Source: Dehalococcoidia bacterium
Lineage (GTDB): Bacteria; Chloroflexota; Dehalococcoidia; Lucifugimonadales; Australimonadaceae
Length of the DNA stretch: 64,000 nt
Direction: 5' to 3'
Assembly: GCA_965261385.1 (NCBI GenBank)
Contig: CBDHDB010000002.1
Span: 1,850,314-1,914,313 of the forward strand
A program made the position numbers and the translations under genes. Shown one piece after another: positions 1,961 to 48,747 of this stretch (its first letter is position 1; each line of letters begins with the position of its first letter). Below the pieces are notes generated by a model. It saw only the letters and a program-made list of their open reading frames with translations. It made no database searches and had not been told where the DNA came from.

Positions 1961-2030
1961 CGCTACCGCGCTGCCACAACGCCGTTACTGACTCACACTT
2001 ACCTGCGGTTGGAGCGGGGCGGACGAGCGG

Positions 2031-2594
2031 CTACTCGGCAGCCAGCTGCTCTTTCAAGAGCGCGGTCTGCTTGGACATCGGCACGCCGGCCCATCGCGGC
2101 TCGCGGTCCTCCCGCTCGATGGTCAGCTCGATGAGGACGGGGCCGGTCATCGACCAGATCGCCGGCAGACGCTCGAGCAGGTCCTCGGCAGCCTCGATCT
2201 TCAACGCGTCCGCATACCCCGCGCCTTTCGCGAGCGCCACCCAATCGAACCTGCCCTGGGCCGGCAGGTCCTGGTTGCCGGTGCTCTGGTGCAGACCGTT
2301 CGCGAACACGAAGTGGTAGAGGTTGGCGGGCGACTGCCCCGCGATGGTGACGAGCGAGCCCAGCTGCATCAGCAGACTGCCGTCGCCGTCGAGCACCATC
2401 ACCTTCTTGTCGGGCCGGGCCATCGCGAGGCCGAGGCCGATGGAAGACGCGCTCCCCATGCACTGGGAGGCGTCGACGTGGAGCGTCTCGCCCTGCCCTG
2501 CCTGGTGCCACGGGTGAATCGACTGCATCGTCGCGACGGACACAGCGTCGCCGCGGCCCTCGGCAAGAATGTCTATTGCTTCTTGACGTTCCAT
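2031..2594 (-). CDS. TPP-dependent decarboxylase beta subunit (ComE/sulfopyruvate decarboxylase-like)
   Basis: ATG at 2594 (MERQEAIDIL...) lies inside track ORF 2031-3179. It carries the TPP-binding motif LDGDGSLLMQLGSL and is 187 aa, which fits a ComE-type subunit. Confidence 0.8.
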   Translation of the reverse strand: MERQEAIDILAEGRGDAVSVATMQSIHPWHQAGQGETLHVDASQCMGSASSIGLGLAMARPDKKVMVLDGDGSLLMQLGSLVTIAGQSPANLYHFVFANGLHQSTGNQDLPAQGRFDWVALAKGAGYADALKIEAAEDLLERLPAIWSMTGPVLIELTIEREDREPRWAGVPMSKQTALLKEQLAAE

Positions 2595-2596
2595 GG

Positions 2597-3118
2597 CTAA
2601 GTAGTCGGCGCTCCTATGATGACTGCGACGGGGCCCATCTTCTCGTGGGCCTGGCGGTACGCTTTCTCGATGTTCCCCAGGTCCTCCGGGCCTTCGATGC
2701 GATAGTTCGGCACGCCCCAAGTGTCCAGGGTCGGCTCGACCATGCGGACGGCCCGCGATCTGCTCTCCTCGACGGGGAGCATCGGGTCGCGCTGGAACTG
2801 GCCGACGAACATCAGCGTCGGGATTCGCGCGTCGAGCGGGATCGCCTTGATGGTGTTGATCGACGCGAAGATGCCGTTGTTCTGGATGACGAGAACCGGG
2901 TTCTTCCCGCCCATGTACAGTCCGGCGTTGATCCCCATCGCCTCGTCCTCGGTACAAGCGATCATGAAGCGTATGTCCGGATCGCCGGCGAGGAGCGCAA
3001 TGAGCGTCTTCTGGTACGAGTCCGGGATGCAGACGACGTGGTCGACCCCGAGCTTCTTGATCTCGGCGGCGATCAGCTTCGCGTCCACTCCCTTGGCGAC
3101 AGGCTCTGCTTGCGTCAT
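2597..3118 (-). CDS. TPP-dependent decarboxylase alpha subunit (ComD/sulfopyruvate decarboxylase-like)
   Basis: 173-aa ORF with a pyrimidine-binding N-domain pattern (CIPDSYQKTL...TEDEAMGINAGLYMGGK...IQNNG). Its stop is 2 nt before the beta subunit start. Confidence 0.8.
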   Translation of the reverse strand: MTQAEPVAKGVDAKLIAAEIKKLGVDHVVCIPDSYQKTLIALLAGDPDIRFMIACTEDEAMGINAGLYMGGKNPVLVIQNNGIFASINTIKAIPLDARIPTLMFVGQFQRDPMLPVEESRSRAVRMVEPTLDTWGVPNYRIEGPEDLGNIEKAYRQAHEKMGPVAVIIGAPTT

Positions 3119-3120
3119 GC

Positions 3121-4296
3121 CTATGCCCCCGCGATGCAGGAGAGCTCGACCTCTGCATTGTGTTCGAGGTCGACCCCAACGATGTTCATGGTTGGCGGAT
3201 CGCCGCCGAAGCGCTCCTTGGCGAGGGCGACGAACTCGTCCTCGAAGTTGATGTCGTCTAGGAACACATCGAGCCGCAGCACGTTTTCGACGGATGTGTC
3301 GAACCGGTTGAGGGCGGCGTCGAGACGTCGGAGCGCCTGCCGCGCTTGACCGGCCCGGTCTCCGTACAGCTCCTGCTTCACGGCACCCGTGTTCTCGTCG
3401 GCGAGTCCGGAGGCGCCGGACGCGAAGACCAGGCCGTTCGCCTTCACCGCTTGGGCCCGGTCCGAGTCCTCGGCGAGCCAGGCAATCTCCTTCTCTCCGC
3501 CCGGATTGATGGCGACTCCACCAATCTCCATGAGGCCACGGCCGCCCAAGAGCGTGCCGACAGAATAGGCGGCGAAGTGGACCTTGCCGTCGAACCGGCC
3601 CTTCAGTGCGTCACGATAGTGGTCCACGTCGCCGATGCGCTTCAGCGCGCAGTCGGTTCGAACCAGGTCGTCGAGACTGCCGCCGCCCTTTTCGAGGTGC
3701 GACCGCAGCCACTCGTAGGTGTAGAAGAGCTCCATATCGAACTGCTCCGGGACTTCTTCCGCGGCCTCTTCCTCGGTGAACGGGTTGGAGCGGCCCCGCA
3801 CGCCGATGACATAGGTGAAGTCGCCGCAGCGCGTGATGCGCGAGGCCCGTCCGCGATGCGGCTGGTGCACGAACACCTGGCGTTCGAGGTCGGGAGTCAC
3901 CGCCTGGACGACCGCCGTGAGCATGTTCACGCCGCTCATCTTGCATTGGGCGCCGAAGCTCACGGCGAGCTTGTGGCCTTCTTCGCCGAAGTGGTCGGGC
4001 CAGGTCGCCATGCGTTCGAGGCGCCAGTACTGGCCGGACGTGAAGTTCTCGATCCATACCGCGGAGTCGCCGCCGTAGCCCGCCTTCTGCAGACGCAGGG
4101 CCTGCCGCCCATAGGCGTTGTTGCACTGGGGTATGGGCTGGTTGTCGAGCTCCGGGTCAATCTGCTCGGTCTGGATGTCGCGATGGCCGTCAGAGCTGGA
4201 CAAGAAGAGGTGAGGGCCATAGCGGAGCACCGCCGCCATGTTCCTGTTGCGCTCGTCGGCGAGCAGTATCTCCCTGATGTAGCGGTTCTCAGCCAC
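3121..4296 (-). CDS. protein with three tandem RidA/YjgF-like domains
   Basis: GTG at 4296 is 1 nt after the upstream gene's stop, and the track ORF extends to 4359. The 391 aa divide into about three 130-aa units. The C-terminal unit (NGLVFASGASG...VLRLDVFL...MNIVGV..L..NAEVELSCIA) is clearly RidA-like; the first two are more divergent. Confidence 0.7.
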   Translation of the reverse strand: MAENRYIREILLADERNRNMAAVLRYGPHLFLSSSDGHRDIQTEQIDPELDNQPIPQCNNAYGRQALRLQKAGYGGDSAVWIENFTSGQYWRLERMATWPDHFGEEGHKLAVSFGAQCKMSGVNMLTAVVQAVTPDLERQVFVHQPHRGRASRITRCGDFTYVIGVRGRSNPFTEEEAAEEVPEQFDMELFYTYEWLRSHLEKGGGSLDDLVRTDCALKRIGDVDHYRDALKGRFDGKVHFAAYSVGTLLGGRGLMEIGGVAINPGGEKEIAWLAEDSDRAQAVKANGLVFASGASGLADENTGAVKQELYGDRAGQARQALRRLDAALNRFDTSVENVLRLDVFLDDINFEDEFVALAKERFGGDPPTMNIVGVDLEHNAEVELSCIAGA

Positions 4297-4297
4297 G

Positions 4298-5509
4298 CTA
4301 ATTCCCGTTGGGGCCCTGGATCCCGAAGATGCGCTGGGCACGGGCCCAGACCACGTCATGGACGAGCTCAGGGTCTACCCCGCTGAACATGCGCTCCATG
4401 GCGGGCGTCGCGTCCGGCCAGGTCTGGCCCTGCTCGTGCGGGTAATCACAGCCCCAGATGACGCTCTCCCGGATGAGGAACTCGGGGTCGGGAATCATCT
4501 TCGCGCCGATGTAGTCCTCTTCGAACGTGAAGCTCATGTTGTTGTTGATGTAGTGGAGCGGGTCTTCCTTCAGCGGGTAGATCGCGTCCGGCGCCCGGTC
4601 CTTGTAGCAGCGCTGCATCCACTGGAAAAGGAATGGCAGCCACCCGATCCGGCACTCCGCCATCGATACGTGCAGGCTGGGGTGGCGGTCGAACATGCCG
4701 CTGAACACGTACTGGGCGACGTGCTTGCCCGCCGGGTTGAAAGGCACCTGCGAGAAGTGCGCGAGCGACTGCCCGTACTCGTTCGGCGGGTACGGCGTGC
4801 CTGCGGCGTCGCCGATGTGCGCGCAGATCACCGTGCCCGTCTCCTCGGCGGCGGCCCACAGCGGCTCCCAAACGGGCGACCACACACCCTCGGCCATGTC
4901 GTTCGGGCTCAGCTCGACGGCCCGCGCGCCCTGGTCAACCAAGCGGTGCAGCTCATCGACGCAGGTCTCGGGAAAGGCGGCGTGCAGCCACGGCAGCACG
5001 ATCAGGCGGTCGGGAGCGTGGGAGCAGACTTCCAGCGTCCAGTCGTTGAACGCCCGGTAAATCTCCTTCTCCATCTCTTTGTCTTTAAAGACCCACTTGC
5101 GGGTGTTGCCGTAGTAAACGCCCGCGTAAAACTCGCCGATGTCCATGTGCTGGAGCAGTATCTCCGGGTCGGCCGGGGGCAGTTTCCCCTCCTCTACTTC
5201 GATAGGGTCGAACCGCTTGGCGTACTTCGCCCAGTCCTTGCCGTCGGCGGCGAAGGCGTGGATATCGCCTTCCCACTCCCAGGCCGTCCCCTTGGGCGAC
5301 TCGACGACTTTCGGCGCCTTGTCCTTGTACCTGGAGGAGATTCGAGACTGGATGATGTCCTTGGGGTACCACACCAAGTCGATGTGGTTGTCGGCTGAGA
5401 TGTACTTGTAGTCAACATCGGAGCCTACTCGTAAGTCGCGCACGCTCTCGTTGCGCCGACGCGCCGTACCGCCGAGCCTGTCCGCCCGAACGTTCTCTTC
5501 CGGCATCAC
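4298..5509 (-). CDS. Amidohydrolase_2 (ACMSD-like TIM-barrel metal hydrolase) family protein
   Basis: 403-aa ORF with ISADNHIDL near the N-terminus and WGCDYPHEQG near the C-terminus. Confidence 0.85.
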   Translation of the reverse strand: MMPEENVRADRLGGTARRRNESVRDLRVGSDVDYKYISADNHIDLVWYPKDIIQSRISSRYKDKAPKVVESPKGTAWEWEGDIHAFAADGKDWAKYAKRFDPIEVEEGKLPPADPEILLQHMDIGEFYAGVYYGNTRKWVFKDKEMEKEIYRAFNDWTLEVCSHAPDRLIVLPWLHAAFPETCVDELHRLVDQGARAVELSPNDMAEGVWSPVWEPLWAAAEETGTVICAHIGDAAGTPYPPNEYGQSLAHFSQVPFNPAGKHVAQYVFSGMFDRHPSLHVSMAECRIGWLPFLFQWMQRCYKDRAPDAIYPLKEDPLHYINNNMSFTFEEDYIGAKMIPDPEFLIRESVIWGCDYPHEQGQTWPDATPAMERMFSGVDPELVHDVVWARAQRIFGIQGPNGN

Positions 5510-5677
5510 CCGCTCCTTTCGTCCGTGCGCGCCTTACGCACGGAACGGGGGAATCCTAGGATTGCGTAAGGGGGGTGTCAAGGAAACAGCCCCTGGGCAT
5601 CCGTCCACACCCCCCGCCCCTCTCACCGACACGCAGCGATGAGAGAGGGATATTCCCGCGGGAGGCCGATCAGCGGC

Positions 5678-6076
5678 ATGACCATCATCTACTCCACAGA
5701 CGATACGCCCAACGTGGCCGAGGTGAGCGAGCTCCTGCGCGACGGCCACTTCAACCGGCCGTTCGACGACCTGCCGCGTATGGAACGGATGCTCCGCAAT
5801 GCCGACGTCATCGTCACCGCTAGGGACGGCGGCGCGCTCGTCGGCGGCGTCCGTGGACTGGCGGACTACTCCAGCCAGGCCTTCGTAACCGAGCTGGTCG
5901 TCGCTTCCCCGTACAAAGGCATGGGCATCGGGCGCGAGCTGCTGCGGCTCTTCCGGGAGCAGGCAGGCGACGAGTGCGCCATCACCCTCCACTCGAGCCC
6001 GGAGGGTCACGCCTTCTACGAGCACCTCAGGTGGGACCCGCTAACTCGCGCCTGGCGTCTGCCCCGCACCAAGTAA
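5678..6076 (+). CDS. GNAT family N-acetyltransferase
   Basis: VVASPYKGMGIGRELL acetyl-CoA-binding motif. ATG 5678 is preceded by GGGAGG; the alternative start 5639 is listed in the track. Confidence 0.8.
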   Translation: MTIIYSTDDTPNVAEVSELLRDGHFNRPFDDLPRMERMLRNADVIVTARDGGALVGGVRGLADYSSQAFVTELVVASPYKGMGIGRELLRLFREQAGDECAITLHSSPEGHAFYEHLRWDPLTRAWRLPRTK

Positions 6077-6182
6077 GTTCCCCGCATGTCCTGCGCATTC
6101 CCGCCGTGCTCTCCCGCTATACTGTGCGGCCCGGTCGCCGAACGGCGCAGGCGCGCTGCCGACGCCGGGCGAGGAGAGGTTC

Positions 6183-6761
6183 GTGCGGAAGAAATGGATA
6201 ATAGCCGCCGTGGCCGGAGGGCTCGCCGTGCTGGCCGTCCTAGGGGGCGCTGTCCTAGCCTGCAACCTTGGCGGCCCGGACGATCAAGGAGAGCACGGGG
6301 AAGGCGGCGGGGATTCCGGCGAACCTGGTGAGCGTCAAGGCAACGAGCACGAGACGGGCGGCGAGGAGCCGGCGGAGCAGCTGACCAAGCAACAGAGCTA
6401 CGACCGGCAGCGGGCCGGCGCCCGGCTCATCCTCACGTACGACGCCGACACCAATTCCTTCTCCGGGACCGTCCAAAACACCACTGATGTCACGCTAAAC
6501 CGCGTACGCGTCGAGGTCCACCTGTCCAACGGCGTCGAGCTCGGCCCGACTACTCCCGCAGACCTCGCTCCCGGCCAGGACCTCTACGTAGCCCTCGGTT
6601 CGTCACCCCCGCCCTTCGAGACTTGGAGCGCCCATGTGGAAGTCGGCGGCGGGGACAGTCCCGGCTCCGAGAGCTCGGGAGAACACAGCGGCAACGAGCG
6701 CCAAGGCCCCACCGAAGGCGAGGACGGCAGCCGCAGCGAGCACACCGGCGGCGGCTCCTGA
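6183..6761 (+). CDS. predicted lipoprotein with Gly/Glu/His-rich tails
   Basis: Signal peptide plus lipobox (AVLAC). A beta-rich core of about 90 aa is flanked by low-complexity G/E/S tracts containing four E-H dyads. Confidence 0.6.
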   Translation: MRKKWIIAAVAGGLAVLAVLGGAVLACNLGGPDDQGEHGEGGGDSGEPGERQGNEHETGGEEPAEQLTKQQSYDRQRAGARLILTYDADTNSFSGTVQNTTDVTLNRVRVEVHLSNGVELGPTTPADLAPGQDLYVALGSSPPPFETWSAHVEVGGGDSPGSESSGEHSGNERQGPTEGEDGSRSEHTGGGS

Positions 6762-6799
6762 CGAGGGGCTGCCCGCCTCTCGTTCCCATCCCCTCTCGG

Positions 6800-7099
6800 C
6801 TAAGAACCCAGGACGGCTTGTCGAAGCGCGGCGTTCGCCCGCGTCTGCCATCCGGGGCCGTCCTGGCGAAGCCGCGCAACCACGTCGGCATCGAGGCGAA
6901 TCGTGACCCGCGTCTTGCCGCGAGCCTCTCGTGCTTCGCGCTCCGCGAGGAGTCGCGCCACGAGTTCCGGGTGGACCTCAGCCGTACGACGGAACGGGCC
7001 CGTCGCCTCCCACGTATCAGAGTTGGAGGCAATGTCCGCGTTGATCGCCGCCTCTTCCTCAGGCGTCGGCCAAATAGTGCCTGGCTTAAGCTTGGGCAT
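6800..7099 (-). CDS. brnA: BrnA antitoxin
   Basis: C-terminal TRVTIRLDADVVARLRQDGPGWQTRANAALRQAV matches the BrnA pattern (isiRld..v..fk..G.GYQtriN). It overlaps brnT by 14 nt. Confidence 0.85.
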   Translation of the reverse strand: MPKLKPGTIWPTPEEEAAINADIASNSDTWEATGPFRRTAEVHPELVARLLAEREAREARGKTRVTIRLDADVVARLRQDGPGWQTRANAALRQAVLGS

Positions 7100-7346
7100 A
7101 GCGTCTCATCTCCCTTGGACTAGCCTTTCGCATACTAATGATACGAGTGTTCCCGCCCCGTGCGGTGTACACCACAACGTGTAGGCGATTGCCAATGTAA
7201 CCTAGCGCGAGCGTGCGCCGCTCTCCATAACGAATCTGCTCTTCCTTTAGCGATGTCTCCCACTGAAAGCGCTCAATCTCCTCAAAGTCAATGCCACGTA
7301 TCTCCAAGTTAATCTGGCGCTTGGCTTCATCCCATTCGTATGGCAT
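7086..7346 (-). CDS. brnT: BrnT toxin (DUF497 ribonuclease)
   Basis: MPYEWDEAKRQINLEIRGIDFEE...GERRTLALGYIGNRLHVVVYTARGGNTRIISMRKAS is a typical DUF497/BrnT sequence. Confidence 0.9.
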   Translation of the reverse strand: MPYEWDEAKRQINLEIRGIDFEEIERFQWETSLKEEQIRYGERRTLALGYIGNRLHVVVYTARGGNTRIISMRKASPREMRRYAQA

Positions 7347-7396
7347 CTCTTAGTGTATGTACACAATCGAGCGCGGGCAAGGCAACGCCCCAGCGC

Positions 7397-8650
7397 CTAC
7401 CGCAGGTTGCGTAGCGTCTTCGAGAACAGCGCTTCCCATATCCCGTAGACGACGATTACGCCCCCCGCCGTCGCCAGCGCGACGCGCCCCCCGAACGCCT
7501 CCGCGAGCGCCGTGATGCCCAGCACGGCAAGGGGTATCAGGCCGCCAATCATGGCGTTCAACGCCTGAACGCGCCCGCGCATCTCCCGGTCCGAGTAGGA
7601 CTGAAGCGCGGCAAGGTGCACCACCGTCCGACCCGAGTGTCCCACCCCGATCGGCAGCATCAGGAACAGCGACAGCACGTACCAGTTGGAGGCGGCGAAC
7701 GCCACGACCCCTGCGCCGAACAGCGTGAAGAACCCCACCAGCAGCAAGCCCTTGCGCTGGAAGTCCCCCAGCGACGCCGCGCTGGTGGATCCCAGCAGCG
7801 ACCCGATGCCGAAGAACGTGAACAGCAGCCCAACGCCATCGGCCCCTATCCCCAACAGGTCCTGCGCCAGCGGCAGCAGGTGTTGGAACGGCTGGCCAAA
7901 GACCGTGATTACGAAACCGATCAGGATGAGGTTCCGGATGACCGGCTCCTGCTTGATGTAGCGGAACCCGTCCATTGGGGAGCCGCCGCGCCGCCGCGAC
8001 TGCCGCCCTGCGGCGCCGTGTACGGGAACCGCGAGCATGAGTAGCATCCCCACCACATAGAGGCCAACGATGAGGAAGTACGCCCACTCCGGCCCGACCC
8101 GCGCGAACAGGATGCCCGCGATCAGCGGCATCACCACTCTGTTCGCGTTCTGCGACATCGTGTGCAGGCCCGTCGCGTTCAGCAGGTGGCCCTCATCCAC
8201 CAGCCCTCCGATGATTGCCCGGCGCGTCGGCGTGACAAATACCATCACCGAGCCTTGGAATACGCCGATGATGGTGATATGCCACCAGTCCAGCAGGCCG
8301 AGCATCACCCCAACGGCAGAGATGACCGCGAACACCACCATCAACCCGCCCGCCACTATCAGGATGTTGCGCATCGACGTCTTGTCCGCCAGCGCGCCGG
8401 CGAACGGCGACAGCACGAGGGACGGCGCGTTGTTCGCCGCAATCACGATGCCCAGGACGATGGGAGCGCGGTCGGCGAGGTCGAAGGCGAGGACCGGCCT
8501 AACGAGCACCATCGCCTGCATCGCGCCGAAATAGAAGAGCATCGCGATGAAGTAGCGCCGGTAGGCGGGTATCGACAGCGAGTCGAATGTACGGGGCCAG
8601 CGGCGGCCCCGGCGTTCGCCCGCGGCGGGTATGGGATGCTGTTCTGCCAT
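7397..8650 (-). CDS. MFS transporter
   Basis: Multi-TM ORF. ATG 8650 (MAEQHP...) is chosen over the track start 8749. Confidence 0.8.
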   Translation of the reverse strand: MAEQHPIPAAGERRGRRWPRTFDSLSIPAYRRYFIAMLFYFGAMQAMVLVRPVLAFDLADRAPIVLGIVIAANNAPSLVLSPFAGALADKTSMRNILIVAGGLMVVFAVISAVGVMLGLLDWWHITIIGVFQGSVMVFVTPTRRAIIGGLVDEGHLLNATGLHTMSQNANRVVMPLIAGILFARVGPEWAYFLIVGLYVVGMLLMLAVPVHGAAGRQSRRRGGSPMDGFRYIKQEPVIRNLILIGFVITVFGQPFQHLLPLAQDLLGIGADGVGLLFTFFGIGSLLGSTSAASLGDFQRKGLLLVGFFTLFGAGVVAFAASNWYVLSLFLMLPIGVGHSGRTVVHLAALQSYSDREMRGRVQALNAMIGGLIPLAVLGITALAEAFGGRVALATAGGVIVVYGIWEALFSKTLRNLR

Positions 8651-8818
8651 CTCGGCGATGCTACCCCTAGCTCCCGTCGTTTGCCACACGTCCCCCTGAG
8701 AGGTGGGGGGCCACACAACGTCCGCCGGGGGTGTGGGGGTGACCCCCACAACGTGATAAAACGGATGCGGCCCGAAGAGCCGTCAACGAACAACCCAAAG
8801 AGTCCAAGGGAGAACGTC

Positions 8819-9772
8819 ATGATTCTGATCGTCGGGGGTATGGGATTCATCGGACTGAACACCGCGCTGCGGCTGCTCGAAGTGGGCGAGAGCGTGGTCA
8901 TCACCCAGCACAGCTCCCACCGCGTGCCGGAAGCGCTGGAGCCCGAGCTGAACGAGCGCGTGTTCGTCGAGCGCGTCGACGTCACCAAGAACTACGAGGT
9001 CATGGAGGCGGCGCACCGCCACAGGGTCGACAGCATCATCTCCTTCGCGGCGCCGCCCGCGCGCGGCATCAGCCCCCAGGAGGACTACCGCGTCTACACC
9101 CAGGGACTGCAGAACCTGCTCGAGACCACGCGGGTGCTCGGCCTCGGCCGCCTCTCCCTCGCCAGCTCGACCTCGGTCTACGGCAGCCTGCCCGGAGGAC
9201 CGTTCCGAGAAGACATGCCGCTGCCCATCGCCTCGCGCACCCAAGTCGAGGCGTTCAAGAAGGGCATGGAGATACACGCCTCCCACTATGCCGGCCGCGC
9301 CAACATCGACGTCGTATCGCTGCGCATCGGGAGCATCTACGGCCCCTACTACTACAGCATGTTCAACCCCATGAGCCGCATGTGCCACGCGACGCTCAAG
9401 GGCGAAGACCCGGACTTCTCGGACCGCCCCGGCGGCGCCATCAGCGAGGACGATCAGGGCGACTGGACCTACGTCGCCGACCTGGCGCGCGGCATCCAGA
9501 TGGTCCACACTGCTGAGAGCCTCGCCCACGACACGTACAACATCGGCTCCGGGGCGGCCACGTCGACGAAAGAGGTGTTCGCGGCGGTGCGCAAGTCCCT
9601 GCCGGACGCCGTCTGCTCCGCGCTCAAGCCCGGCCGCAGCGCCGGCGCCAACCCGCCAAACCCGGTGATGGACCTCACCCGCATCAAAGAAGACGTGGGC
9701 TACGAACCCGAATACGACATCGAATCGGGCATCGCCGCCTACATAGACCACCTGCGCAACCACTCCCAATAG
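8819..9772 (+). CDS. NAD-dependent epimerase/dehydratase family protein
   Basis: MILIVGGMGFIGLN Rossmann motif. ATG 8819 follows AAGGGAGA. The N-terminal part of the track ORF (from 8162) is antisense to the MFS gene. Confidence 0.9.
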   Translation: MILIVGGMGFIGLNTALRLLEVGESVVITQHSSHRVPEALEPELNERVFVERVDVTKNYEVMEAAHRHRVDSIISFAAPPARGISPQEDYRVYTQGLQNLLETTRVLGLGRLSLASSTSVYGSLPGGPFREDMPLPIASRTQVEAFKKGMEIHASHYAGRANIDVVSLRIGSIYGPYYYSMFNPMSRMCHATLKGEDPDFSDRPGGAISEDDQGDWTYVADLARGIQMVHTAESLAHDTYNIGSGAATSTKEVFAAVRKSLPDAVCSALKPGRSAGANPPNPVMDLTRIKEDVGYEPEYDIESGIAAYIDHLRNHSQ

Positions 9773-9827
9773 CCGGGCCGCGCGGGAGGCCGAAAATCAC
9801 GACGGACACATTTCGGTTAGGAGGACC

Positions 9828-10364
9828 ATGGCGCCGGAGATCAATCCGTTCGAGTTGCCGGAGGACCGGAAGGGCTGGCGCGGCCTGGAGGTTTCAGGCC
9901 GCCCGCGCCGTCGCGTGTTCACCGTGCTCGAGACCGACCAGGTGCTGGTCACGGCCCTGATGCAGATGCCGGGCGAGCCGGGAGTGAGGCACTCCCATGA
10001 GAGCGGTGAGCTATCGTTCCGCTGGGCGGGCGACATGACCCCGTTCATCACCTGGCATCCGCCGGACGAGTGGCACGGAGGAAGCGCCGAGACCCGCGCC
10101 GACAAGTCGCAGGAGGTCGCGGAGGGCTTGGCGCTGCTGCGCTCCGAGCTGCGCTCCGGCGCCGCCGAAATCGAGTCGCTGCTGCGCATCGCCGAGACGC
10201 TCCAAGAGCAGATCGACAGCCTTCAGCATCAGGCGCGGAACGCGAAGGGGCCGGCCGGCGGGCCGGGGCTGATCATCGATCTGCTCTTCCCGCCGTTCAA
10301 GACCACGATAGAGGACCCCGCCTACCCCGAGGTCCGCACGCTCACCGGACAGTGGTACGACTAG
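9828..10364 (+). CDS. hypothetical protein, cupin-like with coiled-coil insertion
   Basis: PGVRHSHESGELSF resembles cupin motif 1. It is followed by a heptad-like Leu/Glu/Gln-rich segment of about 60 aa. Confidence 0.5.
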   Translation: MAPEINPFELPEDRKGWRGLEVSGRPRRRVFTVLETDQVLVTALMQMPGEPGVRHSHESGELSFRWAGDMTPFITWHPPDEWHGGSAETRADKSQEVAEGLALLRSELRSGAAEIESLLRIAETLQEQIDSLQHQARNAKGPAGGPGLIIDLLFPPFKTTIEDPAYPEVRTLTGQWYD

Positions 10365-20029: not shown

Positions 20030-20121
20030 AGTCTCCTCCTAGGCCCTCTCGGGGCCATACGCGAGCATAGCAGCAGCCGGTGGGGGCGCCAACGACGGGC
20101 AAGAGGCGTTACCCTATAGGC

Positions 20122-20544
20122 ATGATTCGCGTCACCGACGACATACAGCTTGCCGAGCACGAGATAGAGATGACCTACGTCACCTCCTCCGGACCCGGCG
20201 GGCAGAACGTCAACCGAGTGGCGACCGCCGCCCATCTGCGCTTCGACGCGGCGGCGTCCCCCTCTCTCCCGGAAGACGTCAAGCGCCGTCTGCGGAGCAT
20301 TGCGGGCAAGCGCCTCAGCAGCGACGGCGTACTCATCATCAAGGCCCAACGCTTCCGCAGCCAGGACCGGAACCGCGACGACGCGATGGACCGCCTTATC
20401 AAGATGCTCGCGCGGGCGGAGCGCATCCCCCGCTCCCGCCGCCCTACGGCGCCCGGCAAACAGGCCATCGAGCGCCGCCTGGAAGAGAAGCGCCACCGGG
20501 CCCAGACCAAGCAGGCCAGAACCTCCGCCCTCGAAGAGGAGTAG
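20122..20544 (+). CDS. arfB: alternative ribosome-rescue factor ArfB (peptidyl-tRNA hydrolase)
   Basis: SSGPGGQNVNRVATAAHLRF GGQ motif plus a basic C-terminal tail. ATG is at 20122. Confidence 0.9.
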   Translation: MIRVTDDIQLAEHEIEMTYVTSSGPGGQNVNRVATAAHLRFDAAASPSLPEDVKRRLRSIAGKRLSSDGVLIIKAQRFRSQDRNRDDAMDRLIKMLARAERIPRSRRPTAPGKQAIERRLEEKRHRAQTKQARTSALEEE

Positions 20545-20589: not shown

Positions 20590-20889
20590 TCACTCTGGCC
20601 ATGCGGCCTCACCAGCCCAGTCATCGAACTCGTCAGGCGGAGCCGAGCCGTACGCCGCTTCATACGCCCGGTCGATCTCAGACGCCCAGTCCTCCAACTC
20701 GTCGGGAGGCATGACCGGACCGTACGCGACAGCGTACACCCGGTCGATCTCCTCAGCCTCTTTTCGCGCCAGGTAGTCGGCAACCGCTTCTCGGAGCACT
20801 GCCGAGCGTCCGCGCGTCCGCACCTCCGGGTAGCTGTCCAACCGACGCAGCAACCCCCCTTCCATCGTTACTCGTACAGCCTTCATCAC
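20590..20889 (-). CDS. ribbon-helix-helix (CopG-like) protein with duplicated acidic C-terminal module
   Basis: MKAVRVTMEGGLLRRLD...RSAVLREAVADYL is an RHH. It is followed by two copies of EIDR.Y..AYG....PDE.(E/D)DWA. Confidence 0.7.
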   Translation of the reverse strand: MMKAVRVTMEGGLLRRLDSYPEVRTRGRSAVLREAVADYLARKEAEEIDRVYAVAYGPVMPPDELEDWASEIDRAYEAAYGSAPPDEFDDWAGEAAWPE

Positions 20890-21156
20890 GGGGGTGAACG
20901 TACCACACTACCCCCTCTAACTCTCCCCCGCAGACGAGACCCTTGCATGGCCCACGGTCCCAATCATATGAAGGGGAGCGCAGAGGGGTGACGCCCTTCT
21001 GCCAGGGCATGGGGTTATCCCACACAACATCACGGGCCAGGGGGCCTCCCCTTCCCGTCTGGTCTGTCTCCTCGCCCATCTGCGGGAGAGGGTAGGGAGA
21101 GGTCAGGCGAGGCGCTACAATGCCGGCCGACAGCACCTACCCTCAGGAGCAACCCG

Positions 21157-22335
21157 ATGCCTAGACTCGAAGAACTCTCGGACGTCGCCCAGCAAGGACA
21201 CTTGAACTTCCCCGCGTTCGACCACGACGATTCACCCTGCGCCACGCTCGCCAAACCCCTCGCCGAGGTCAAGCTCGCCCTCGTCACGACCGCCGGGCTC
21301 CATCGGCGCGATGACGCTCCCTTCGCCGGCGGCGACCAGACCTACCGCGTAATTCCGTCCTCGACGCCAGCGCGCGACATTATCCAGAACCACACCAGCA
21401 TCGGTTTCGACCGCACCGCGTTCATGCGCGACATCAACATCACTTTCCCCATCGACCGGGCCCGCGAGCTTGTCGAGCGCGGGGAAATCGGCTCACTGTC
21501 GGAGCACTTCTACTCGTTCATGGGCGCCCAGCGCAGCCCTCGCCAGATCGAGCAAGAGACCGGCCCTGAGGTCGGACGCCTGCTACTCGACGAGGGCGCC
21601 GACGCCGTCTTCCTGACTCCGACCTGACCGAACTGCACGCACACGGTCAGTGTGCTGGCGCGCGCAATTGAAGAGACGGGCCTTCCGACCGTAACGATTG
21701 CGCTCATCCAGGAGCACGCCCAGCGGGTCAAGCCTCCTCGGGCGCTCTGGGTCCCGTTCCCCTTCGGGTTCGCCCTCGGCAAGCCCAACGACCCCGAGTT
21801 CCAGCACAAGGTGCTCGGTGCGGCCCTCGGCCTGCTCCGCGAAAAAGACACGCCGGTGCTGGCCGAGTTCCCCGAGGACGGCGACGCGCCCCCGCGCCTT
21901 CTCCAAGCCGGAGAGGCCCGAGTGGACGCGACCGCCCCGGATGCCGACCCCGCCGACGAGGTGACAGCCCTTCGCGGATGCTACGAGCGTTGGGCAGAAG
22001 AGAGCGGGGGGCGGACCATGGTCGGCTTGAGCGGCGTGCCCCAACGCCGGTTCCGGGGCCTCATCCGCTATATGCAATCATTCGCCGAGGGAGAAGACGC
22101 CCCCTACGAGCTCAAACCCGCGGACCTCGACGCCGGCCGCTTCCTGCGGCTCGCGTCGGACGACATCAAGGCGTTCTACATGGAGGCGCGCTTCTGCCAG
22201 CGCCCCGAGCAACAACACAACGACCTCCAGCACTGGTTCTGGTCCGAGACCGCGATGGGCGGCCTCCTCCACGCCGTCGCCGCAAGGCTGACCGAGCAGG
22301 GCGACGAGCGGAACGCTCAGGGGATCGCGCGCTAA
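21157..22335 (+). CDS. GrdB/PrdB-family reductase-like selenoprotein (in-frame UGA = Sec at codon 157)
   Basis: ORFs 21157-21627 and 21652-22335 share one frame, separated only by TGA 21625-21627. The read-through gives ...DAVFLTPT-U-PNCTHTVSVLARAIEETGLPTVTI..., resembling the GrdB T-U-x-x-C-T region. The N-terminus (VKLALVTTAGLH...D.N..FPIDRARELVERGEIGSL...YSFMG) is GRDB-family-like. The second ORF has no credible start of its own. Confidence 0.75.
21639..21655 (+). promoter_or_regulatory. candidate bacterial SECIS hairpin
   Basis: GCACAC-GGUCA-GUGUGC is a 6-bp perfect stem with a GGU-containing loop. It starts 12 nt after the UGA and extends with bulges. Confidence 0.55.
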
Positions 22336-37211: not shown

Positions 37212-37982
37212 CTACCCCGCCCGCGCGCCCAGGATAATCATGTGCACTTCACCGGGGCCATGCACCCCGATAGTGAGCGTCTGTTCGATGTCCGCGGTGC
37301 GCGACGGGCCGGAGATGAAGTTGAAGTAGTTGGGGCCGCGGGTCCTGGCCTGCATCCCGTTGAGCCGCATGATTGCGAAGAAATCGTCCAGGGTCTCGAC
37401 GACCTGCTCCGGCTCGATGAGCAGCGCCAGCACCGGCGGGGCCAGCGACGCGAGACGCGCAACGCCCTTGCGCGGGATGACCGCGCAGCTCGCCGTCTCC
37501 GCCACCGCGTAGGAAACCCCGGTAATGCCCATGTCCGAGCGGAACGCGACCTCCTTCAAGTCGACGCGACGCCGCGACCGGCTTGACCTGCCCGAGGCCA
37601 AGATTGTCGGCGAAGCTCCCACGGAGCGGAGCGCGCCGTCCACGTCCACGCGATTGAATACGTCCTCGAAGGAGCGGATGACGCTCTTGGCGCCAACGCT
37701 CCGGGCGATTCCCGCAACGGCGGAGGCGGCCTCGGCGTCGCTGTTGACGCGGTGCACGTTCCACGAGGCCGCTGCGGCGGTCTGGGCGAGCCGTTCGACG
37801 CTCTGCTCCCGCCGCGCCTCATTCCTCGCGAGGACCGTCCTGATCTTCTCGGCCTGGCGCGTCGAGTTGGCTTTCAGCGGAGGGTGGTCGGGAGCGTAGA
37901 GGATGGGCTCGGTACGACCGAGGGCCTCGCGGACGCGTTGAAGGAAGGCTGCCTTGTTGGAGTGCTCTTCGGGCGTCGGCAT
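37212..37982 (-). CDS. lutC: lactate utilization protein C (LUD domain)
   Basis: Last gene of a lutA-lutB-lutC order. ITGVSYAVAETASCAV is a LUD-domain pattern. Confidence 0.75.
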   Translation of the reverse strand: MPTPEEHSNKAAFLQRVREALGRTEPILYAPDHPPLKANSTRQAEKIRTVLARNEARREQSVERLAQTAAAASWNVHRVNSDAEAASAVAGIARSVGAKSVIRSFEDVFNRVDVDGALRSVGASPTILASGRSSRSRRRVDLKEVAFRSDMGITGVSYAVAETASCAVIPRKGVARLASLAPPVLALLIEPEQVVETLDDFFAIMRLNGMQARTRGPNYFNFISGPSRTADIEQTLTIGVHGPGEVHMIILGARAG

Positions 37983-37985
37983 CGC

Positions 37986-39443
37986 CTAGCCCTGACCGCC
38001 GCTTCCGTCGGCAAGCTCGTCCCTCCATATCTTGGCGAAGGACTTGGGCGCCGGCTCCGGGAAGTCGCGGCTGGCGGTCCAGCCGCCCACCATCGGAACG
38101 GGAACGAGTCCCGCGAGCCTGCCCCGGCGTGTGGTCATTCTCTGCGCGATCCTGCCCCACCGCGCCTTGCCTTCCAACGCCTTCCGGCTGCGCATCGCCG
38201 TATGCCATTGGCGTATGAACAGCCGCTCCATCCAAGTGGAGCTGCTCTCGCCGGGGCCGCCCTCGGCGACCTTCCGGCGGAGGTGCAACAGGAGCTTGGG
38301 GATGTCGATCTTCACGGGGCAAACGTCGCGGCACGCGCCGCACAGCGTTGACGCGTAAGGGAGGTCGCGCGCGACCTTCATGTCGGTCATGGGGGGAGTG
38401 ACGATGGCGCCGATGGGGCCCGAGTACACCCAGCCGTAGGCATGACCGCCGATCCTCTGGTAGACGGGGCAGTGGTTCAGACAAGCGCCGCACCGGATGC
38501 AGCGCAGCGCCTCGCGAAGCGTCTCGTCCTTCAGGAGGTTGAGCCTGCCGTTATCGACGAGTATCAGGTGGAACTCCTCCGGGCCGTCCTCGTCGCTCTG
38601 ACCGCGAGGGCCGCCCACGAAGGTGTTGTAGCTGGTGATGCGCTGGCCCGTAGCCGAGCGCGGCAGCAGACGGAGGAAGAGGGCAAGGTCCTCGATGGCG
38701 GGCAGGAGCTTCTCCATGCCCGCGAGGACGACGTGCACGCGCGGGGCGGACGTGGTCATGCGGCCGTTGCCCTCGTTCGTGACGATGCAGACGGTGCCAG
38801 TCTCGGCGACGACGAAGTTCGCGCCGCTGATGCCCATCTCGGCCGCCTCAAACTTCTCGCGAAGGGCATCGCGCGCGTAGGTGCAGAGACGTTTGATGTC
38901 CTGGGTCGGCGCGGTCTTCAGCCACTCCTGGAAGAGGTCGGAGACCTCCTGGCGGGTCTTGTGCATGGCCGGGGCGATGATGTGGAAGGGCGTCTCGCCG
39001 GCAAGCTGGATAATGTACTCGCCGAGGTCCGTCTCGACAGGCTCGATGCCCTCGCGCTCCAGGACATGGTTGACGCCCATCTCCTCGGAGACCATCGACT
39101 TGCTCTTGATGACCGTCTTAACGTTGTTGCGACGCGCGATGTCGAGGACGATCCGGTTGGCTTGTTCGGCGTCGTCGGCAAAATAGACGTGGCCCCCGTT
39201 GCGGCGGACGTTCTTATCGACGAGGTCCAGGTAGTAGTCGAGGTTCTCGATGACGGACTGCTTGATGGCGGCGGCGCGGTCCCGCATGGCGTCCCAGCTC
39301 TCGTCCCCGAAGTCGTTCTCGATGCTCGATGCGCGCGCTTCGACGAAGTGCTTCATGACGTGGTCGAGCGAGTGCTGGAGCTTGTCGTCGTGGACGGCGC
39401 GGGCCGACGCCTTCTTGAAATCGGCGGACTTGACCTCAGCCAT
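37986..39443 (-). CDS. lutB: lactate utilization protein B (4Fe-4S, LUD domain)
   Basis: CIRCGACLNHCPVY and CGACRDVCPV ferredoxin motifs. ATG 39443 overlaps the lutA stop by 8 nt. Confidence 0.85.
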   Translation of the reverse strand: MAEVKSADFKKASARAVHDDKLQHSLDHVMKHFVEARASSIENDFGDESWDAMRDRAAAIKQSVIENLDYYLDLVDKNVRRNGGHVYFADDAEQANRIVLDIARRNNVKTVIKSKSMVSEEMGVNHVLEREGIEPVETDLGEYIIQLAGETPFHIIAPAMHKTRQEVSDLFQEWLKTAPTQDIKRLCTYARDALREKFEAAEMGISGANFVVAETGTVCIVTNEGNGRMTTSAPRVHVVLAGMEKLLPAIEDLALFLRLLPRSATGQRITSYNTFVGGPRGQSDEDGPEEFHLILVDNGRLNLLKDETLREALRCIRCGACLNHCPVYQRIGGHAYGWVYSGPIGAIVTPPMTDMKVARDLPYASTLCGACRDVCPVKIDIPKLLLHLRRKVAEGGPGESSSTWMERLFIRQWHTAMRSRKALEGKARWGRIAQRMTTRRGRLAGLVPVPMVGGWTASRDFPEPAPKSFAKIWRDELADGSGGQG

Positions 39444-40248
39444 CGGCGCCCCCCTCGGCGAGGAGCTCGGCGATGTGGACGGCGCGGGCGCGCATCCCCT
39501 GGCGCTCCATCGCCCCGCGGATGTGCATGAGGCATCCGCAGTCGTTCGCGACAAGCGTATCCGCGCCGGAGCTCTCGATGTTCTTCAGCTTCTGCTCCAG
39601 AATGGCGGTCGAGATGTGGGGAAACTTCACGGAGAAGAGGCCGCCGAAGCCGCAGCAGGCCTCGGACTCGTCCATCTCCTGAAGCTCGACGCCGGCGACG
39701 TTCTCAATGAGCTGACGCGGCTCCTTGGAGATGCGGAGCTCGCGCAGCAGGTGGCAGGCGTCGTGGTAGGTCACGAGGCCGCCGGAAGCCGCGCCCACGT
39801 CCGAGACTCCGACAACGTTCACGATGTAGTCGCTCAACTCGCGCGTCTTCTCGCCGACGGCTTTGGCGCGTTCGAGGTTCTCGGGATCGTCTTCGAAGAG
39901 CTCCTTGTAGTAGACCTTGACCATGCTGGCGCAGGAGCCGGACGGGATGATCACGTGCTCTTCATTCTCGAAAACGTCGAGGAAGTGCTTGGCGACGTCC
40001 GCAGCCTCGGCGCGGAAACCCCCGTTGAAGGCGATCTGCCCGCAGCAAGTCTGATCCTCGGGAAACCCAACGTCGACGCCGAGGCGGCGCAGCACCTTGA
40101 CCGCCGCCACGCCCACCTCCGGGTAAAACTGGTCGACGAGACAGGTCGCGCACAGGGCCGCCCGAAACTTGGGCAGCGGCTGCCCTCTTCTTCTTGTTCG
40201 TCCTGAGCCCGTCCAAGGGCGGCCGCGTCGTCGAGCCACGAGAGTCAA
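39436..40248 (-). CDS. lutA: lactate utilization protein A (CCG-domain Fe-S oxidoreductase)
   Basis: CATCLVDQFYPEVG...DQTCCGQ...HDACHLLRE...SEACCGFGG. The N-terminus is Arg-rich and atypical, so the true start may be downstream of 40248. Confidence 0.8.
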   Translation of the reverse strand: MTLVARRRGRPWTGSGRTRRRGQPLPKFRAALCATCLVDQFYPEVGVAAVKVLRRLGVDVGFPEDQTCCGQIAFNGGFRAEAADVAKHFLDVFENEEHVIIPSGSCASMVKVYYKELFEDDPENLERAKAVGEKTRELSDYIVNVVGVSDVGAASGGLVTYHDACHLLRELRISKEPRQLIENVAGVELQEMDESEACCGFGGLFSVKFPHISTAILEQKLKNIESSGADTLVANDCGCLMHIRGAMERQGMRARAVHIAELLAEGGADG

Positions 40249-40284
40249 GGTAACAGACGGCCAGGCGGCGTGACAACCGGCCCT

Positions 40285-40292
40285 TACCCCCA
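40285..40292. repeat. target-site duplication, left copy (TACCCCCA)
   Basis: Identical 8-mer flanks both IS ends (40285-40292 and 41718-41725). Confidence 0.85.
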
Positions 40293-41717
40293 GTACCTGT
40301 TCAGAGTTGGTGAGGAGGATTGGCTAAAAGTGGTGTTCCTAAGGGCTAGCGCTGACCGAGGCAGTTCGGTGATAGAGATGACATGGATGCCCGCATCGAC
40401 TTGGACGCCGCCCGCCGCGACGAACTCATCGCCCTCATCGTCCAGCAGCAGACGGTCATTGGGCGCTTGGAACGGCGCATTGCCCAGTTGGAGGACAAAG
40501 CCAAACCGGGCGGCCCATCGGGAATGCCCGGCCTCAAGCCACAGTCCAGCCCGAAACCTCCGGCCCCCCAGCAGCCCCGGAAGCCCCGGCCCCATGGCTT
40601 CTCCCGTCGACGGATGGCCCCCACCCACCGGGTGGAGCACGTCGTGCCCCGATTGCGGGACCCCGTTGTCCGGCGGCTGGGCCCATCGCACCCGGGAGGT
40701 CATCGACCTGCCCCGGGTCCCCGCGCAAGTCACCGAGCACGTCTTCATCGCCCGGGTTTGTCCCCGCTGCCGGCGCAACTGCCTCCCCTCGGCAGAGTTG
40801 GACAGGGCTGCCTTGGGGAAGCAGCGCCTGGGAGTCAACCTGGTCAGCCTGATTGCCACCCTGCGGGAGGAGGGGAGGCTGCCCATCCGCAGCATCCAAT
40901 GGTATCTGCGCACCGTCCATCAGTTGCGCCTCAGCGTGGGAGCCATCGTCGCAGCCACCCAGCGCACGGCGGAGAAGGCCCGGCCCGCAGTGGCGGGCAT
41001 CTTGGAGCGCATCCGCGGCAGCCCGGTGGTCCACGCCGATGAGACCGGCTGGCGGGAGAACGGCGCCAACGGCTATGTGTGGACGTTCAGCACGCCCACC
41101 GACCGCTACTTCCTGCGGCGTGGCCGAGGCAAGTCGGTGGTGGATGAAGTCCTCGGCGACGGGTTCGCGGGGGTGCTGGTCTGCGATTTCTACGCCGCCT
41201 ACCACCACTACGACGGCCCCAAACAGCGGGGCTGGGTCCATCTGCTGCGGGACATCCACGACCTGCGGGGCCTCTACCCCGATGACGGCCGGCTGGCCCA
41301 GTGGGCCGAAGCCGTCCATGGGCTTTACGCTGAGGCCAAAGCCTTCGCCCATCCCAAGGAAAAGCAGCGGCGCGCCGCACAACAGGCCTGGGAACAGCGC
41401 CTCCTGGCCCTCTGCCGTCCCTTCCTGGATGACCGCGCGGCAGCCCAGGCCAAGCTGTGCCGTCGCATCGAGCGCCACATCAAGGAACTCCTCGTCTTCG
41501 TGGGCGAACCGGCGGCGCCGTCGGACAACAACGCCGCCGAGCGCAGCCTGCGTCACTTGGTCGTGAGCCGCAAGGTCAGCGGGGGGACTCGGTCAGCGCA
41601 AGGGACCGACGCCAAGATGACCCTGACTTCGCTCTTCGGCTCCTGGCGGGCCCAAGGCCTGAATCCCCTCGCCGCCTGCCGCCAACTGCTCCTCTCTCCT
41701 CAACTCTGAACAGTTAC
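40293..41717 (+). mobile_element. IS66-family insertion sequence (single-ORF, ISBst12-like architecture), 1425 bp
   Basis: Left inverted repeat GTACCTGTTCAGAGTTG (40293-40309) matches the reverse complement of the right repeat GTAACTGTTCAGAGTTG (41701-41717) at 16/17. It has an 8-bp TSD and an IS66-type transposase inside. Confidence 0.85.
40383..41709 (+). pseudogene. IS66-family transposase, reading frame interrupted near 40641-40650
   Basis: The N-terminal leucine-zipper part (MDARIDLDAARRDELIALIVQQQTVIGRLERRIAQLED...PRPHGFSRRRMAPTHRVEHVV) is in one frame. The zinc-finger and DDE part (CPDCGTPL...VVHADETGW...VCDFYAAY...NNAAERSLR) is in the frame of ORF 40270. Removing one nt restores ...VEHV-CPDCG.... 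Confidence 0.8.
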
Positions 41718-47185: not shown

Positions 47186-47220
47186 AGCCTGGACGGCTAC
47201 CGCCTAGGTTGAGTCGCGGC

Positions 47221-47250
47221 ACTCTAGCGCGGGGCGCATTACGCTGTCAA
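47221..47250 (-). promoter_or_regulatory. sigma70-like promoter of paralogue 1
   Basis: On the minus strand: TTGACA (47250-47245), 18 nt spacer, TAGAGT (47226-47221). Confidence 0.45.
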
Positions 47251-47293
47251 TTCATTGGGGGCTTACAGCGCGGCTCGCGTCTTCCGAATCGCA

Positions 47294-47324
47294 AAGCCGC
47301 CCCGCCAACGTGGCGGGGCGGCTT
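47294..47324 (-). terminator. GC-rich hairpin downstream of paralogue 2
   Basis: AAGCCGCCCCGCC-AACGT-GGCGGGGCGGCTT is a 13-bp stem, 24 nt after the stop at 47348. The U-tract is weak. Confidence 0.55.
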
Positions 47325-47347
47325 CAGTCCACCCTCGTCTCGCGCTG

Positions 47348-48589: not shown

Positions 48590-48663
48590 CTGTTCCCCCT
48601 AGCGCTCGCCAATGGCATACAAGACAGAGTATGGACGGGACTGACCATATTGGAAGCGACGGA

Positions 48664-48692
48664 AACCTATCGCGGGAAGCCGCAACTGTCAA
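48664..48692 (-). promoter_or_regulatory. sigma70-like promoter of paralogue 2
   Basis: On the minus strand: TTGACA (48692-48687), 17 nt spacer, TAGGTT (48669-48664). Confidence 0.45.
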
Positions 48693-48747
48693 TTCCGTTT
48701 CATGGGCCACGTTGGGCGCTGGGGAACCCGACATCCCGATCAACAAA

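Follow-up and report, generated by a model that had tools for sequence, protein, structure and literature searches.

A predicted stand-alone PrdB-like selenoprotein encoded across an in-frame UGA in a Dehalococcoidia bacterium

Introduction

Does the TGA that parts two adjacent open reading frames (ORFs) of a Dehalococcoidia genome end a gene, or does it encode selenocysteine (Sec) in the middle of one, and if so, to which family does the product belong? The question is raised by positions 21157-22335 of a 64,000-nucleotide stretch of contig CBDHDB010000002.1 (GenBank assembly GCA_965261385.1, positions 1,850,314 to 1,914,313 of the forward strand), which is referred to as the window throughout. 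An earlier note, made from the sequence alone, had described the locus as a hidden selenoprotein gene of the GrdB/PrdB family with a hairpin resembling a Sec insertion sequence (SECIS) behind the UGA. Our analysis leads us to read 21157-22335, with a probability of about 0.88, as one gene for a 392-residue selenoprotein with a Sec-encoding UGA and a SECIS; within the GRDB (selenoprotein B) superfamily, the product would fall into a large PrdB-like clade of stand-alone proteins and act as a catabolic-type reductase without PrdA.

Proteins described as "proline reductase PrdB" (UxxC motif, pfam07355) have long been known to be abundant in the environment. Among the selenoprotein families of the Sargasso Sea they ranked third in abundance, with 42 Sec forms and 1 Cys form (2005; PMC1088965), and they were one of the top families of the Global Ocean Sampling (GOS) data, with 235 Sec and 110 Cys forms (2008; PMC2398784). 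Reviews list "PrdB" simply as D-proline reductase (PMC9312934, PMC13188914), and in the Clostridioides difficile enzyme Sec151 of PrdB is the catalytic nucleophile (PMC11229817).

Results

Reading frame and homologues

Translation joins ORFs 21157-21627 and 21652-22335 into a single gene of 392 codons, both lying in the same frame with TGA 21625-21627 as the sole interruption (Table 1), just as the earlier note had it. The joined product of 392 residues reads ...FLTPT-U-PNCTHTVSVLARAIEE... across the UGA, and the peptide over residue 157 is ...FLTPT-U-PNCTHTVSVLAR. Public gene calls divide the gene into pieces of 156 and 227 aa, and calls are split in the near-identical contig L094 and in loci L001 and L002. 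The sole start codon open to the downstream ORF is GTG 21652. It lies inside the 3' arm of the hairpin, without a Shine-Dalgarno sequence, and the codon at this position in relatives is often GGG or GCG, from which no translation start is possible. The view that the downstream ORF has no plausible ribosome-binding site or start of its own is thus sustained.

Table 1. Features of the selenoprotein gene, in window coordinates
Feature	Position	Strand	Basis or remark
Shine-Dalgarno-like AGGAG	21145-21149	+	7-nt spacer before ATG 21157; read from sequence
Selenoprotein gene, 392 codons including one Sec codon	21157-22335	+	start ATG 21157, stop TAA 22333-22335
PrdB-like alpha/beta catalytic core, residues 29-229	21241-21843	+	TIGR04483 alignment, PrdB identity, AlphaFold2 (AF2) model of P0030
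UGA codon, predicted to encode selenocysteine (U157)	21625-21627	+	Cys in 12/12 full-length homologues; TGA in 79/80 genomes
TGC codon, Cys160, putative resolving Cys of U-x-x-C	21634-21636	+	column C160 invariant in homologue alignment
Predicted SECIS hairpin GCACAC-GGUCA-GUGUGC, 17 nt	21639-21655	+	6-bp stem, arms 21639-21644/21650-21655; loop GGUCA 21645-21649
Family-specific C-terminal region, residues 240-392, mostly helical bundle	21874-22332	+	no Pfam match; AF2 model

When the entire window was scanned for coding frames that a TGA interrupts, with high third-position GC required on both sides, this site alone was returned. When the window was compared with relatives at 61-93% identity, the differences lay mainly at third codon positions on either side of the TGA, and the eight codons from the TGA to the first possible restart were almost invariant. 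These patterns show purifying selection on both halves and, with it, their translation in this frame. A scan for promoters and terminators around the gene found none.

The joined protein, with U replaced by Cys, was searched against 5.8 billion proteins; 525 relatives were returned, and the best 120 were inspected. As many as 108 of these are 217-252 aa long and cover only the C-terminal 53-58% of the query, representing the same Sec-type gene, cut at the same place in gene calling. The remaining 12 are Cys forms, for the most part full-length proteins of 365-397 aa with 41-47% identity, aligned over 92-100% of the query; one of them (P0050, from JGI metagenomes) has 496 aa owing to a C-terminal fusion to a muconolactone-isomerase-like domain (PF02426). 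The earlier note had asked whether homologues end at the UGA as two separate proteins and whether they carry Cys or Sec there. The full-length Cys homologues align end to end, and the column is Cys in 12/12 of them, inside an invariant TPT-[U/C]-P-x-C-T motif. In a BLASTP alignment, U157-P-N-C160 falls on C151-G-T-C154 of a genuine Enterococcus gilvus PrdB, so that the U-x-x-C redox motif, which had been placed at the Sec site of GrdB-type proteins, coincides with the catalytic Cys/Sec151 of PrdB.

In addition, one genome per species was scanned for 185,579 species, which located relatives in at least 590 species genomes, and the best 80 loci were compared. These loci are distributed over Dehalococcoidia/SAR202, Methylomirabilota/Rokubacteria, Acidobacteriota, Eremiobacterota, Actinomycetota, and Alpha-, Beta- and Deltaproteobacteria, the nearest being metagenome-assembled genomes of Dehalococcoidia at 96% and 93% identity (the latter OZ252088.1). 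TGA stands at the Sec column in 79 of the 80, and Streptomyces sp. CA-111067 alone has TGC. The decoding of UGA 21625-21627 as selenocysteine is strongly supported by these comparisons.

Duplication of the gene was also observed: three loci contain tandem paralogues, each with its own in-frame TGA (L068 at 6460 and 7689, L073 at 6460 and 7691, L082 at 5234 and 6463).

SECIS hairpin

A perfect hairpin twelve nt past the UGA had been reported for this site. It is indeed present, with a spacer of 11 nt and a stem that begins at the 12th nt. The bacterial SECIS (bSECIS) model describes a loop of 3-9 nt on a stem of 4-16 bp, G in the first two loop positions, 16-37 nt between UGA and loop, and a minimum free energy (MFE) of -7.5 kcal/mol or below (PMC13188914). 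The window hairpin, with 6 bp under the 5-nt loop GGUCA, G-G-U at the start of the loop, a distance of 17 nt and -8.6 kcal/mol, agrees with all four criteria. Applied to the 17-nt core of the relatives, the same thresholds are passed by 49 of 76; 26 of the other 27 keep loop, stem and spacing and miss the MFE alone, and L064 misses stem and loop too.

The stem was then evaluated in an alignment (A2) of 76 distinct sequences covering -3 to +51 around the TGA. In stem columns 18-23/29-34, 90% of cells are paired, compared with 15-62% in controls whose 3' arm was shifted by 1-3 columns, and RNAalifold independently predicts the identical stem. Pair 22-30 is never broken, being A-U in 37 sequences, G-C in 34 and G-U in 5, and pair 20-32 is A-U in 55 and G-C in 8. 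Column 30 falls on the third, synonymous position of a Ser/Gly codon and is matched to the first base of the opposing Thr/Ala codon. Its third-position choice tracks the partner in 76/76 sequences (A with U in 37/37; G with C in 34 and with U in 5). Since the column is synonymous and nevertheless follows its partner, the covariation of the stem is not a by-product of the protein sequence. The Ser codon in the window hairpin is AGU, the rarest Ser codon of the window genes (19/688, 2.8%), and it keeps the A-U pair. A further compensated stem, GUGCGC...GCGCAC, occurs in six loci, and U-A and G-C variants are found in Betaproteobacteria. As a control, four distinct retrievable Cys-type genes retain only 3-4 of the 6 pairs, with no hairpin fold at this place.

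Family assignment

The joined sequence, again with U replaced by Cys, was compared with Pfam GRDB (PF07355), a check that had been proposed for it, and gave 41.5 bits against a gathering cut-off of 22 over residues 15-156. The match stops there because the model ends at the Sec position. The PrdB model TIGR04483 aligns with residues 29-229, straight through the UGA, with E = 6e-46 and 156.7 bits against an equivalog cut-off of 300; the Cys homologue P0030 reaches 124.8 against the same 300. Scores for TIGR01918 (55.5 against 65.45), GrdB (48.9 against 602), GrdF (65.5 against 800) and GrdH (59.7 against 775) are all below cut-off as well. The GrdB, GrdF and GrdH models of about 435 aa are matched at positions ~205-431 only, their N-terminal ~200 aa being absent from the window protein.

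Identity to the genuine E. gilvus PrdB, which is encoded in an annotated prdC-prdA-prdB operon, is 39% over residues 31-229 (BLASTP). The partners in the genuine operon, namely PrdA, PrdC, the GrdE-like subunit and CBO2463, have no tblastn match in the 64-kb window or in ~90 family loci, and the window ORFs scanned with Pfam include no member of the GRDA or Gly_reductase families. The earlier observation that no grd or prd partners are nearby therefore holds for the window. We conclude that the protein is PrdB-like, yet neither PrdB nor GrdB.

C-terminal domain

An extension of about 140 aa at the C-terminus had been listed among the unusual traits of this gene. The extension does exist; the part beyond the PrdB-like core, however, amounts to ~160 aa (residues ~230-392) and is conserved family-wide, so that it is not peculiar to this gene. 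Pfam has no match to the C-terminal region (residues 240-392), and an exhaustive search of 1.84 billion representative proteins with this region gave 257 clusters and no other architecture. In all of these, the region forms the end of the protein, which has either ~230-250 aa (split Sec forms) or ~390 aa (Cys forms).

The AF2 model of the full-length homologue P0030 has a predicted local distance difference test (pLDDT) score of 80.6 and consists of an alpha/beta core followed by a helical bundle. Modelled alone, the C-terminal domain reaches a pLDDT of 86 and a predicted template modelling (TM) score of 0.82. Foldseek with the full-length model was uninformative, its best hits being photocobilin/B12-binding proteins at E = 8e-3 and TM ~0.3, and the C-terminal model has no fold relative in the PDB (best E = 1.9). 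There are no PrdB or GrdB structures in the PDB copy searched. The PDB sequence matches are confined to weak, local alignments of I-x-P-T-C-P-x-C with glutaredoxin active sites (E = 0.1-0.4). The redox motif T-P-T-U-P-N-C-T of the window protein is located where a helix begins after a beta strand, and the local geometry is glutaredoxin-like. The C-terminal domain is conserved and charged and has R, E, D and W residues that are invariant, which points to a dedicated binding site; judged from its context, this domain probably binds the substrate.

Gene neighbourhood

ORF clustering over 83 loci and tblastn with seed sequences identified no neighbour shared across phyla, only clade-specific ones. 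In the window's clade, the order is LLM oxidoreductase, ArfB, the selenoprotein gene, MFS and Amidohydro_2, and in a SAR202 clade a zinc-type alcohol dehydrogenase gene lies upstream of the family member instead.

Genes of the Sec machinery accompany the family in six loci, all of which are alphaproteobacterial. L065 (19-7200) has the order selA, selB, (glycosyltransferase), tRNA-SeC, selD, family member; in L070 (2517-7200), the family member is beside selD and tRNA-SeC; and sel genes also flank it in L078, L079, L081 and L057. In both L065 and L070, tRNA-SeC precedes the family member by ~2 kb. None of the Dehalococcoidia loci contains a sel gene at a distance of up to 6 kb. In BSepDB, which holds only species with a Sec pathway, Dehalococcoidia bacterium UBA1141, the source of locus L015, is recorded with 49 selenoproteins (PMC13326102).

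The Cys-type genes are found in a different setting. In Streptomyces sp. CA-111067 (NZ_CP192103.1, region 29.5-42.7 kb; positions 1924-10128 of locus L049), the gene order is LysR, CoA-transferase, MR_MLE cycloisomerase, DUF1330, the family gene, intradiol dioxygenase, dienelactone hydrolase and an iron-containing alcohol dehydrogenase of the maleylacetate-reductase type. These are the genes of a modified ortho-cleavage operon, to which the family gene is added as an extra. Soil metagenome contigs L083-L085 and L088-L090 have a Cys-type gene in the same aromatic-cluster pattern, GcvH is immediately downstream of the Cys-type gene in L088 and L091, and GcvT-like, MTHFR and FTCD_C genes occur near several Cys-type genes of soil metagenome contigs. 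The idea that the unexplained "ORF3" of the clc and tcb chlorocatechol operons might be a family member was not supported; tblastn with P0030 against 72,556 plasmids gave only true PrdB and two alphaproteobacterial genes of the "selenoprotein B family".

Directly upstream of the selenoprotein gene lies a gene for the ribosome-rescue peptidyl-tRNA hydrolase ArfB (20080-20544, +; NCBIfam equivalog match of 165.8 bits against a cut-off of 100). The order arfB-selenoprotein gene is kept in L001-L007, at 58-96% identity, and this adjacency may be plain synteny. Between the two genes is a 99-aa ORF without a family match (20590-20889, -), at the site of which L001 has a PemK toxin/ribbon-helix-helix antitoxin pair.

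Other features of the window

Stop codon usage in the window is very unusual for a genome of 65% GC. Among 47 well-supported ORFs, 36 end in TAG, 8 in TAA and 3 in TGA, the last being 6183-6761, 40270-41709 and 60988-62106. TAG is also favoured in close relatives and in SAR202-like loci, and Actinobacteria loci of similar GC content use TGA 18 to 1; in the literature, a preference of TGA over TAG is treated as the rule (PMC10471768, PMC9348620). TGA is not reassigned in the window, because only one frame has an internal TGA. It is conceivable that the scarcity of TGA is connected with a Sec-rich way of life, in which RF2 would compete less with SelB.

The TGA-terminated ORF 40270-41709 (+) encodes an IS66-family transposase, inserted beside a lutABC-like operon (37212-40248, -). 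Next to a TctA gene (43188-45734, -), four tandem paralogous ORFs of 412-424 aa (45911-51508, -) have no Pfam match; their sole hits, N-terminal and weak (20-23 bits, cut-off 190), are to the NCBIfam Rcas_1661 model of a thioredoxin-like (seleno)lipoprotein. They may be solute-binding lipoproteins of the TctA transporter.

Discussion

The results described above suggest how such an enzyme could be made and could act. The hairpin, as a bacterial SECIS, would recruit SelB-GTP-Sec-tRNASec to the ribosome at the UGA. If catalysis follows that of PrdB and GrdB, U157 would attack an electrophilic carbon or sulfur of the substrate with its selenolate, and Cys160 would resolve the adduct to give a selenenyl-sulfide (PMC11229817, PMC13188914). 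A dithiol donor, possibly thioredoxin or a lipoyl protein such as the GcvH found next to several Cys-type relatives, would then re-reduce the selenenyl-sulfide. The genomic context further implies that the enzyme might act alone, with no pyruvoyl PrdA subunit. Since the Cys relatives are located in ortho-cleavage operons, and the neighbours in the Dehalococcoidia lineage (LLM oxidoreductase, Amidohydro_2, MFS) are catabolic, the contexts suggest a role in the breakdown of organic acids or ring-cleavage products, and not in Stickland-type proline reduction.

Several observations weigh against this reading. On the RNA side, an Rfam scan of 21400-21900 yielded no relevant SECIS family match, and the fold of the single sequence is not distinguishable from that of shuffled ones (z = 0.68), so that the support for the hairpin rests on the comparative analysis. 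The MFE structure of the single sequence is in fact an alternative helix (21623-21653), in which the loop GGUCA is complementary to UGACC at the Sec codon; it is mutually exclusive with the hairpin and can be paired in 74% of cells of the 76 sequences. We set this helix aside because its covariation is not above that of shuffles (71 of 500) and 3 of its 9 pairs are broken in most sequences, although in the window's own clade the two structures could compete. As for the genome, a tRNA search and a Pfam survey of the ORFs found no tRNA and no sel genes within the 64-kb window. The aromatic-pathway context is limited to the Cys-type actinobacterial clade (44-47% identity), and the partners of that clade are absent from the Sec-type loci, except for distant MR_MLE paralogues in seven SAR202 loci. 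Consequently, the aromatic lead applies directly to the Cys clade only.

Other explanations have to be compared with a Sec-containing, self-sufficient reductase. It is unlikely that the protein is a general thiol/selenol-disulfide oxidoreductase, i.e. a redox carrier of the glutaredoxin or thioredoxin kind or a peroxidase, rather than a reductase that cleaves a substrate. Weak local similarity to glutaredoxins (E = 0.1-0.4) is all that the PDB offers in sequence, the metagenome surveys group PrdB with thiol-dependent redox selenoproteins bearing UxxC (PMC1088965), and the Sec-type loci lack a conserved partner or pathway. This possibility does not readily account for homology over 200 residues that is to the catalytic subunits of substrate reductases and not to the thioredoxin fold, for the invariant R, E, D and W of a C-terminal domain that suggests a dedicated binding site, or for the fixed position of Cys-type members in catabolic operons. 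That the gene encodes a genuine PrdB of D-proline reductase, or a GrdB-type subunit of glycine, sarcosine or betaine reductase, with its PrdA or GrdE partner elsewhere in the genome, seems very unlikely to us. It is true that TIGR04483 is the best named model (E = 6e-46), that the Sec/Cys columns align at 39% identity to genuine PrdB, that JGI labels the Cys homologues "D-proline reductase PrdB", and that metagenome surveys file such proteins under PrdB (PMC1088965, PMC2398784). However, the 156.7 bits remain below the equivalog value of 300, as do the GrdB, GrdF, GrdH and TIGR01918 scores with respect to theirs, and the conserved domain of ~160 aa is absent from PrdB. A genuine operon keeps its partners adjacent, whereas PrdA, PrdC, the GrdE-like subunit and CBO2463 are missing from the window and ~90 loci. 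Furthermore, natural Cys forms exist here while PrdB U151C is inactive (PMC11229817), and the hosts appear to be largely aerobic soil and marine heterotrophs.

The remaining two explanations concern the UGA itself. Readthrough by means other than Sec, through a reassigned code or near-cognate insertion of Trp or Cys, would fit the striking rarity of TGA terminators in this lineage (3 of 47 window ORFs), but we regard it as highly improbable. A single coding frame with an internal TGA in 64 kb implies that TGA is no general sense codon; the Cys of the homologues at this column makes a classic Sec/Cys pair, a covarying SECIS follows the codon, and sel genes are linked to family members. The chance that the TGA is a real stop or an error, leaving a pseudogene, a sequencing artefact or two small proteins, is negligible in our estimation. 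The public gene calls do present two ORFs, and TGA does end a few window genes. Nevertheless, 79 of 80 species have the TGA at this place, purifying selection acts on both halves, and the eight linker codons are nearly invariant, on which grounds we dismiss a pseudogene, a sequencing error and two independent proteins alike. The downstream ORF has no conserved start or ribosome-binding site, and truncation would cut off the resolving Cys together with half of the catalytic domain.

We therefore retain the single-gene, Sec-containing reductase as the preferred reading. The gene is of a known kind, correctly identified by the earlier note, and is not a new system. The same note had regarded it as an unusual stand-alone Sec-dependent reductase; its stand-alone and selenoprotein character is supported, while a family present in at least 590 species genomes is less unusual than was thought. 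What is absent from the literature searched is the separation of the family from true PrdB, its private C-terminal domain, the covariation of the SECIS, and the aromatic-operon and GcvH context of the Cys forms, on the last of which our literature search found no paper.

A more general proposal is put forward only tentatively, as we would sooner bet against it than for it. The abundant environmental "PrdB" selenoproteins, including the one described here, might constitute a self-contained class of Sec/Cys reductases with their own substrate-binding helical domain, instead of subunits of proline or glycine reductases, and in the Cys clade they might contribute an extra step to modified ortho-cleavage of the chlorocatechol/hydroxyquinol type. 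One possibility for such a step is that an intermediate of the muconolactone or maleylacetate type reductively loses a heteroatom substituent that is alpha to a carbonyl; lipoyl-GcvH or thioredoxin would then serve to recycle the selenenyl-sulfide or disulfide.

The consequences for annotation are more immediate. Both here and in hundreds of public genomes, the gene is wrongly presented as two hypothetical ORFs, with only the first piece recognisable ("GRDB"), so that genome annotation and metabolic models miss a selenoprotein. The family is among the most frequent selenoproteins of ocean and soil, yet it goes under the name of D-proline reductase, an enzyme with a defining partner that the family loci lack. 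Its function is made approachable by a cultured Streptomyces with a Cys form in a catabolic operon, by the recurrent GcvH neighbour of the Cys genes, and by the clean covariation of the SECIS.

Comparison with known systems

With PrdB, the window protein shares a homologous alpha/beta core, U/C-x-x-C at the same column and a UGA-coded Sec with the SECIS directly downstream, and the same chemistry of selenolate attack and resolution by Cys would be expected by analogy. The two differ in that the window protein scores below the PrdB cut-off and has an extra helical C-terminal domain of ~160 aa, whereas PrdB is a single domain of ~240 aa. The family loci are also without the pyruvoyl subunit PrdA, PrdC and neighbours of the PrdH type, natural Cys forms occur, and the hosts belong to other phyla with another lifestyle. 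GrdB, GrdF and GrdH have in common with the window protein that it passes Pfam GRDB and has a redox site of the UxxC type; in contrast, their models are matched over one half only, with 49-65 bits against 602-800, and GrdA, GrdC, GrdD and GrdE are not nearby.

The window hairpin resembles bSECIS elements of the E. coli fdhF type as a hairpin within the coding region just past the UGA, with a small G-G-U loop, 17 nt from UGA to loop and a 6-bp stem. Presumably, the likeness extends to the GGUC of the fdhF loop. Unlike these elements, the window hairpin is short, has no obvious lower stem or bulged U, and matches no Rfam model.

Finally, the "PrdB" family of the Sargasso Sea and GOS surveys by Zhang and Gladyshev agrees with the present one in its UxxC motif, in pfam07355, in the predominance of Sec forms (here 108 split forms to 12 Cys forms among the best 120) and in its occurrence in aerobic marine bacteria. 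The surveys did not part the stand-alone form of 390 aa from true PrdB, and the C-terminal domain, SECIS covariation and gene contexts are undescribed in them. Because marine alphaproteobacterial and SAR202 members show the full 390-aa architecture, the "PrdB" of those surveys is very probably this family, matched here by description, motif and architecture rather than by direct sequence comparison.

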